Below, one piece after another: positions 54,338 to 63,116 of a stretch of 64,000 nucleotides of DNA; within the stretch, counting starts at the first letter, position 1, and each line of letters starts with the position of its first letter. Position numbers and translations under genes: made by a program. The notes beneath the pieces were generated by a model. That model saw only the letters and a program-made list of their open reading frames with translations. It was not told where the DNA came from and searched no databases. This DNA comes from Escherichia coli (GTDB lineage Bacteria; Pseudomonadota; Gammaproteobacteria; Enterobacterales; Enterobacteriaceae), in NCBI RefSeq assembly GCF_044324785.1, contig NZ_CP172127.1; one strand, given 5' to 3'.

Positions 54338-54368
54338 AAACGGCTCAGAAATGAGCCGTTTATTTTTT
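54338..54368 (+). terminator. S10 operon terminator
   Basis: acggctc-agaaatg-gagccgt stem-loop followed by ttatttttt. Confidence 0.8.
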
Positions 54369-58528: not shown

Positions 58529-60008
<1,480 letters not shown>

Positions 60009-60026
60009 TTTTTTCGCATATTTTTC

Positions 60027-60055
60027 TTGCAAAGTTGGGTTGAGCTGGCTAGATT
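60027..60055 (+). promoter_or_regulatory. putative alpha operon promoter
   Basis: TTGCAA (60027-60032), 17 bp spacer, TAGATT (60050-60055); overlaps a perfect 8-bp-stem palindrome at 60044-60062. Confidence 0.4.
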
Positions 60056-60145
60056 AGCCAGCCAATCTTTTGTATGTCTGTGCGTTTCCATTTGAGTATC
60101 CTGAAAACGGGCTTTTCAGCATGGAACGTACATATTAAATAGTAG

Positions 60146-60511
<366 letters not shown>

Positions 60512-60524
60512 TCGGGGTGATTGA

Positions 60525-61571
<1,047 letters not shown>

Positions 61572-61596
61572 AGCTTAGTACCAAAGAGAGGACACA

Positions 61597-63023: not shown

Positions 63024-63051
63024 AAAAAAACCCGCCCCGGCGGGTTTTTTT
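63024..63051 (+). terminator. alpha operon intrinsic terminator
   Basis: aaaaaaa-cccgcc-cc-ggcggg-ttttttt immediately after the rplQ stop. Confidence 0.88.
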
Positions 63052-63116
63052 ATACCCGTAGTATCCCCACTTATCTACAATAGCTGTACTCTTTTTGTTC
63101 ATCCCCTGGAGTATAT

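Follow-up and report, generated by a model that had tools for sequence, protein, structure and literature searches.

The stretch of DNA analysed here, which we call the window, comprises 64,000 nt of Escherichia coli (assembly GCF_044324785.1, contig NZ_CP172127.1) and contains the junction between the spc and alpha operons, where a spacer of 146 nt separates rpmJ from rpsM. The S10-spc-alpha cluster, in which this junction lies, encodes about half of the ribosomal proteins, SecY and the alpha subunit of RNA polymerase. How transcription is divided among the three operons S10, spc and alpha has been under discussion since the 1980s, and spc is usually described without a terminator. A window position w corresponds to MG1655 position 3502626 - w on the minus strand. 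The 321 bases that surround the hairpin that is the subject of this analysis are present at an identity of at least 99% in 5425 of 5426 complete E. coli genomes, and at 100% in the best-ranked records. The features of the junction are the following:

59892..60008, + strand: rpmJ, for ribosomal protein L36, which closes the spc operon; from the list of open reading frames, and annotated under this name in 5425 E. coli genomes and MG1655
60010..60026, + strand: A/T-rich stretch ttttttcgcatatttttc just before the -35; from the sequence
60027..60032, + strand: -35 hexamer TTGCAA; from the sequence and its conserved geometry
60037..60068, + strand: full 14-bp hairpin, made of an outer stem of 6 bp, a bulged A (A60043), an inner stem of 8 bp and a loop of 3 nt; from a fold of -18.8 kcal/mol, covariation and RNAalifold
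60044..60062, + strand: core palindrome GCTGGCTA-GAT-TAGCCAGC; from the sequence, a terminator-pattern scan and an RNA fold
60050..60055, + strand: -10 hexamer TAGATT, at the apex of the hairpin (last two pairs plus loop); from the sequence and its conserved geometry
60056..60062, + strand: GC-rich discriminator AGCCAGC, doubling as right arm of the core stem; from the geometry
60068..60077, + strand: U-rich tract, TTTT at 60068-71 and then GTATGT; from the sequence
60076..60187, + strand: S4-binding pseudoknot leader, Rfam RF00140 Alpha_RBS; cmscan match of 102.7 bits (E = 3e-24) over the full model
60155..60511, + strand: rpsM, for ribosomal protein S13, which opens the alpha operon and starts with GTG; from the list of open reading frames and the genome annotation

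A hairpin superimposed on the alpha promoter

The hairpin begins 29 nt past the rpmJ stop codon. At its core, eight perfectly matched pairs enclose a loop of 3 nt, with caatcttttg behind them, and the terminator-pattern scan picked up the site independently; as RNA, the core stem folds with -11.8 kcal/mol (z of -4.3 against shuffled sequences). The first-pass annotation had described this perfect stem at 60044-60062 and its overlap, on the DNA, with a candidate -10 hexamer TAGATT. The stem is real, its size was understated, as the full hairpin has 14 bp, and the overlap holds: the -10 lies in the apex, within a conserved arrangement of -35, 17 bp and -10. A third tier of A/U pairs (60028-33 with 60069-74) lengthens the fold to 60028-60074 (-22.8 kcal/mol, z of -4.1); it showed neither double changes nor covariation in the alignment described below and is therefore not claimed as a conserved element. 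At 60039, natural variation between g and a replaces a G.U pair by A-U.

Both the core and the extended stem provide the stable, GC-containing RNA hairpin expected of an intrinsic terminator. The U tract that follows is short, with 3-4 U. The tail behind the extended stem, UUUGUAUGU, has a d'Aubenton-Carafa T-score of 3.26 and that behind the core stem, CAAUCUUUU, a score of 0.63, compared with 3.3-5.0 for the clear terminators of the window, so that 'weak or leaky terminator' is an apt description. By itself, a perfect 8-bp hairpin is weak evidence. Nested hits in the window number 35, spread over about 17 sites, where dinucleotide shuffles yield 6.4 +/- 3.0, and the chance expectation is about 0.015 per 146-nt spacer; what raises this palindrome above chance is its conservation, with compensatory change, across several orders of Gammaproteobacteria.

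The promoter elements, TTGCAA and TAGATT with a 17-bp spacer between them, match the sigma-70 consensus at 8 of 12 positions and are spaced as sigma-70 promoters are (16-18 bp); the cut-off of our promoter scan was 9/12, and the promoter is therefore unlisted there. The A/T-rich stretch at 60010..60026 is possibly an UP-like element. Its proximal part, 'atttttc', is invariant in 17 Enterobacterales spacers, and Vibrio and Pasteurellaceae carry a similar 'atttttac' or 'catttttc' before the -35. Judging from the position of the -10 and from the published length of the alpha leader, about 94 nt, alpha transcription would start at about 60061-60063. If the start does lie at about 60062, within the right arm, RNA made from the alpha promoter is devoid of the left arm and cannot fold into the hairpin, which only RNA made from upstream promoters then contains. 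The Cappable-seq and Kim 2012 supplements held no entry for the start site of the alpha promoter. The region upstream of rpsM (PrpsM) is described as a strong constitutive promoter in Salmonella and E. coli reporters, so that promoter activity in isolation is on record for this region, in fragments whose exact boundaries may differ from ours. The Salmonella rpsM promoter is repressed directly by DksA in vitro, which fits the GC-rich discriminator forming the right arm.

Downstream of the promoter, Alpha_RBS is the S4-binding pseudoknot through which translation of the alpha operon is controlled (PMC3616713). The Rfam match begins 8 nt past the end of the hairpin (60068), which thus lies outside the covariance-model match and is not part of this family. 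When 60000-60160 is folded, the leader helix appears next to the hairpin, each independent of the other, and no competing pairing between the hairpin and the leader or pseudoknot was seen in this fold of a single sequence. A regulated attenuator, i.e. a switch between terminator and antiterminator, was rejected on the same grounds, as the fold holds no mutually exclusive structure.

Several other candidates were examined and set aside. A Rfam hit to mir-4079, at 20.7 bits where the gathering score is 62, is of the kind that any hairpin can give by chance, and a Fis, TrpR or REP-like site was ruled out on spacing or sequence. Within the palindrome, 60046-60060 reads TGGC-N7-GCCA, and genomic SELEX gave a low peak of RpoN holoenzyme in the spacer; a sigma-54 promoter was rejected, since the GG/GC offset in cTGGCtagattaGCCa is 10 on both strands compared with the required 12 (TGGCAC-N5-TTGC). 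A palindromic operator was dropped as well: its half-sites are not conserved, the stems covary between clades and the register is shifted by 2 nt in Pasteurellaceae.

Conservation of the hairpin as RNA

For the comparison, S13 served to locate rpmJ-rpsM spacers in 80 species genomes, exact L36 sequences led to those of 38 further assemblies, and five metagenome contigs were added. The pattern used on the metagenomes, GTATCC-N3-6-CGGGCTTT, was unspecific, with only 5 of 120 loci being true rpsM leaders; these five added independent cases of a -10 within a hairpin. Among 17 distinct spacers of Enterobacterales, the block 60020-60071 is nearly invariant and the adjoining pseudoknot stems vary freely. 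The promoter geometry is conserved in Enterobacterales, Pasteurellaceae, Vibrionaceae, Aeromonas and Orbaceae, with a -35 of TTGCAA, TTGAAA or TTGCCA, a spacer of 17 bp (18 in Orbaceae) and a -10 of the form TAnnnT. Outside Enterobacterales the -10 starts about 100-110 nt (up to 119) before rpsM, and wherever the promoter geometry persists it sits at the apex of a hairpin whose stem sequence differs. The core stem of E. coli recurs in Aeromonas and Orbaceae, with different loops.

A first alignment, anchored on the promoter and essentially ungapped, comprised 20 distinct sequences from Enterobacterales, Aeromonas, Orbaceae and Vibrionaceae. Across the 14-bp helix, 86% of the cells are paired, and double changes occur at 7 of the 14 pairs; in the comparison with slid partners, the controls pair in 35-54% of cells and the true partners in 83%. 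The covariation score is 0.303, against 0.02-0.10 when the partners are slid by 1-3 columns, and none of 500 shuffles reached it. E. coli and Vibrio have an identical architecture, namely an inner helix of six pairs (eight in E. coli), a single bulge, an outer helix of six pairs and a T-run, and double substitutions separate them at five pairs of the helix. In Pasteurellaceae, represented by six distinct sequences, the helix has 11 bp and its centre is shifted by 2 nt relative to the -10; 95.5% of its cells are paired, and two pairs run through the series C-G / U-G / U-A. RNAalifold recovered both helices, the 14-bp one and that of Pasteurellaceae.

Among the cells that are not Watson-Crick pairs, 29 are G.U on the sense strand and 6 are A.C mismatches, the latter being what a wobble on the opposite strand would look like, an excess which argues that the selected object is the RNA of the + strand and not a palindrome in the DNA. 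The T-run behind the stem is conserved too, positions 60068-60070 being invariant and 60071 nearly so in the 20 sequences from four orders. Together, these comparisons indicate that the hairpin is selected as sense-strand RNA. One spacer of 107 nt (815-921 of locus L109, assembly GCA_900537085.1), which follows a Vibrio-type L36, carries neither the hairpin nor a -35/-10 match.

In more distant lineages the two elements are combined in other ways. Stutzerimonas and Pseudomonas have a strong terminator-like hairpin behind rpmJ, followed by a TTGATT-17-TATTAT promoter whose -10 does not overlap it. In Colwellia (locus L019, 1080-1108), the hairpin behind rpmJ contains the promoter GTGGCA-17-TATAAT within its two arms, and in two metagenome sequences related to Colwellia the left arm alone has changed, to G.U pairs against a fixed TGTATAAT. 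A further metagenome locus (L178) has an 11-bp stem with TGTATAAT in the loop and TTTTT behind it. Sequence comparison thus shows the presence of a hairpin in the stretch from rpmJ to the rpsM leader to be a theme general to Gammaproteobacteria. At least three registers are used for nesting the promoter in it; in cases of overlap the promoter side stays fixed, and the opposite arm adapts.

The Colwellia-like loci (L019 and, from metagenomes, L122 and L147) and L178, where the -10 lies in the right arm or loop, represent separate instances of nesting in a terminator-like hairpin, in other registers. In Pseudomonadales, Cellvibrionales, Halomonas and Marinobacter, the motif GCGCC(C)-TTTT follows the putative -10 (loci L028, L034, L038, L045, L051, L052, L068 and L077), and the rpmJ-proximal hairpin does not lie over the promoter. 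In Stutzerimonas the T-run is found in the loop of a leader helix further downstream. A role other than termination is therefore possible for the conserved T-run.

RNA 3' ends at the hairpin and their possible origin

Term-seq data allowed us to ask where transcripts end in the spacer. Supplementary file 1 of Adams et al. 2021 (PMC7815308) lists 3' ends at two sites in the U tract, both of the class 'orphan':

60070 (MG1655 3442556, minus strand): RNA 3' end in M63 glucose, 97,870 average reads (PMC7815308)
60075 (MG1655 3442551, minus strand): RNA 3' end in LB at OD 2.0, 77,819 average reads (PMC7815308)

In LB at OD 0.4, i.e. during fast growth, the same source holds no curated 3' end at the hairpin, so that the ends are confined to the two slower-growth conditions of the three. 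Position 60070 lies 8 nt past the core stem and 2 nt past the extended stem, and 60075 lies 7 nt past the extended stem; both ends thus fall, in vivo, at the distance of 7-9 nt from a stem that is expected of an intrinsic terminator. RNAs initiated at the alpha promoter and ending at these sites, 8-13 nt past the alpha start, would be too short to map, and the ends should therefore belong to transcripts from upstream. The first-pass annotation had likened the palindrome, as RNA, to a weak intrinsic terminator at the spc/alpha boundary and had named transcript ends or starts in this interval as the check; it had also suggested that the palindrome could modulate read-through or promoter activity. 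The likeness is borne out by a hairpin and U-run with covariation and by the presence of 3' ends at 60070 and 60075, which Term-seq as a method cannot assign to termination as opposed to trimming by exonucleases. Many ORF-internal 3' ends in the strongly expressed ribosomal-protein operons have read counts similar to those at the hairpin, and the bona fide rplQ terminator has 25,474 reads only, with its curated 3' end inside its own hairpin, on account of which we dropped read counts as a measure of efficiency.

In the reading we favour, at a probability of roughly 0.6, spc read-through transcripts meet a leaky intrinsic terminator in this hairpin, or at the least a structure that forms their 3' ends, and the element lies on top of the alpha promoter. 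Polymerases that come from the spc (and S10) promoters would pass through rpmJ, and the nascent RNA would then fold into the 14-bp bulged hairpin, with UUUGUAUGU behind it. Some polymerases would release there, or the transcript would be trimmed back later, leaving the 3' end of the spc mRNA at 60070-60075, and the remaining polymerases would continue into rpsM. Substantial read-through from spc into alpha was reportedly found by Cerretti et al. in 1983 and Lindahl et al. in 1990, and according to earlier reports most polymerases pass the hairpin site; a read-through of this kind fits a leaky terminator and not a tight one. A survey of 2006 lists the spc operon without a Rho-independent terminator.

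The same DNA would serve as the sigma-70 promoter of the alpha operon. With the -35 upstream of the left arm, the promoter spacer would supply the left arm, the AT-rich -10 the loop and the GC-rich discriminator the right arm, and the U tract would be the start of the alpha transcribed region. Alpha transcripts starting in the right arm (at about 60062) would be devoid of the left arm, which would make the promoter immune to its own terminator. The data show the hairpin, its conservation as sense-strand RNA, the conserved geometry of the promoter and RNA ends within the U tract; termination as the origin of these ends, the size of the terminated fraction and the exact start site are what we infer.

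The superposition might also be a mechanism in its own right, which we consider improbable. Sliding of polymerase after termination, followed by re-initiation, is known from single-molecule work, and at this junction polymerases of the spc operon released 8-13 bp past the alpha start could be delivered, as terminated core enzyme, onto the alpha promoter and re-initiate there. If this were true, read-through would be turned into fresh transcripts with the exact 5' end needed for S4 control. Termination might equally be tuned by S4 or NusA, to which we give as little credit; a NusA-like activity has been reported for S4, and such tuning would tie alpha transcription to free S4 and would explain why the 3' ends appear at slow growth only.

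Other uses of the hairpin have to be weighed against the leaky terminator. The hairpin could act only in the protection or processing of 3' ends: the S10-spc-alpha RNA would undergo cleavage further downstream, with RNase E acting at the AU-rich start of the leader as one example, exonucleases would stall at the hairpin and the secY-rpmJ mRNA would be stabilised. Ends at 2 and 7 nt past the extended stem are typical of exonuclease stalling as well, the U tract has little strength, these operons have many further 3' ends that are clearly not those of terminators, and the covariation supports the hairpin and no particular use of it. We nevertheless regard this as rather unlikely, since a protective hairpin needs no T-run, yet the T-run is invariant directly behind the stem in four orders, and 7-8 nt from either stem end is the spacing of intrinsic termination. 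The conserved T-run and the mapped 3' ends are also left unexplained if the hairpin is taken as an insulator, which would keep the promoter-region RNA inert in read-through transcripts so that the S4 pseudoknot (60076-60187) folds alike from either start. The end of the hairpin only 8 nt before the Alpha_RBS match, and the formation of hairpin and leader helix without interference in the fold of 60000-60160, would suit such a function; the folds show no competing pairing of the hairpin region with the pseudoknot, and we find it quite improbable.

The palindrome might act as DNA, as an operator for a dimeric regulator, as a cruciform that tunes promoter opening or as a divergent antisense promoter; the -10 lies at the centre of symmetry, the bottom strand reads TAATCT there, and a low RpoN-holoenzyme gSELEX peak has been reported in the rpsM-rpmJ spacer. 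A shared -10 would not account for a symmetry that spans 14 bp, the stem sequence differs among Enterobacterales, Vibrionaceae and Pasteurellaceae with its pairing kept and its register shifted by 2 nt, unlike what a conserved protein site would do, and G.U on the sense strand is tolerated far more than A.C, all of which makes an action at the DNA level very improbable. It is harder still to credit that the palindrome is a by-product of promoter constraints, i.e. of an AT-rich -10 and a GC-rich discriminator, helped by chance. About six perfect 8-bp hairpins per 64 kb are expected by chance, and a stem that is invariant within Enterobacterales is uninformative on pairing. The left arm, however, is part of the promoter spacer, where constraint is normally weakest, and yet in several lineages and three registers it changes in step with the right arm, by way of double changes and wobble intermediates.

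Related operon junctions and neighbouring RNA ends

Each of the components has known counterparts. The alpha-operon promoter (P-alpha or rpsMp), said to have been sequenced by Post et al. in 1980, is the same locus and the same DNA, with the same -35, -10 and discriminator, and is likewise strong and DksA-repressed; its known description comes without an account of the conserved complementarity of spacer and discriminator, which would act in RNA from upstream promoters. Alpha_RBS, the immediate neighbour, is restricted to similar Gammaproteobacteria, and differs from the hairpin in that the latter lies outside the model and would be absent from alpha-promoter transcripts if these start at about 60062. 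Canonical intrinsic terminators, such as the one behind rplQ (63026-63056), also combine a GC-containing hairpin with U residues and have 3' ends 7-8 nt past the stem; compared with the rplQ terminator, the U tract here is much shorter (T-score of 3.26 or 0.63 against 4.97) and the element lies inside a promoter. The rplL-rpoB attenuator is a partial terminator inside a ribosomal-protein cluster. Attenuators of this type likewise set relative transcript levels by leaky termination between co-transcribed units, whereas at the spc/alpha site neither a regulatory alternative structure nor factor dependence has been found, and the promoter overlap is peculiar to it.

The closest comparison is the preceding junction of the same cluster, between S10 and spc, which has the following features:

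54338-54361: S10/spc junction hairpin of 12 bp (aaacggctcagaaatgagccgttt), followed by attttttc; terminator-like
54390-98: spc promoter with an extended -10, TGTTATAAT, and the GC-rich discriminator GCCGCGCCC

Here too, a terminator-like hairpin and the stringent-type promoter of the next operon share one short spacer. They stand side by side at S10/spc, the hairpin ending about 30 bp before the -10, whereas at spc/alpha they are superimposed, with the -10 in the loop. A search of the Adams data for a curated Term-seq 3' end at the S10/spc hairpin, by the expected coordinate prefix (MG1655 ~3448260), gave no match.

The promoter, the read-through and, in supplementary data, the 3' ends at the spc/alpha junction are each already on record, and the hairpin would be another leaky operon-junction terminator. 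We found no earlier description of its deep conservation as an RNA built from the promoter's own spacer and discriminator. The nesting of hairpin and promoter is a tidy but fairly ordinary piece of wiring at an operon boundary, and its general lesson is modest, namely that promoter spacers can encode RNA structure for transcripts begun elsewhere. On a practical level, the hairpin offers a concrete, mutable element for testing how alpha is uncoupled from spc, as changes in the left arm should break the RNA structure and leave the -35 and -10 intact. It also calls for caution in the use of the popular 'PrpsM' fragment, which carries a terminator-like hairpin in the way of any transcription that comes in from upstream.

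Three further observations concern the surroundings of the junction. A perfect 8-bp palindrome at 61555-61575 (agctttac-tccaa-gtaaagct) lies at the end of rpsD, where it overlaps the rpsD stop, just before rpoA; it can also be read in a nested register (gctttact-cca-agtaaagc), and it has no T-run behind it. The most abundant Term-seq 3' end nearby is at window position 60188 (MG1655 3442438, minus strand), with 539,676 reads in LB at OD 0.4, one base beyond the 3' edge of the Alpha_RBS match (60076-60187). This position suggests a stable leader fragment carrying the S4 pseudoknot, protected from exonucleases or arising from pausing or termination at a trapped initiation complex. Finally, a 3' end at 59780 (MG1655 3442846), in secY and 112 nt before rpmJ, was present in all three Term-seq conditions, with a weak terminator-like hairpin upstream of it at 59731-59746. 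DirectRNA-seq coverage over the 800 nt past 59780 is 2.7 times that before it (4432 against 1615), a rise that fits extra initiation, or higher stability, around rpmJ and the rpsM leader.
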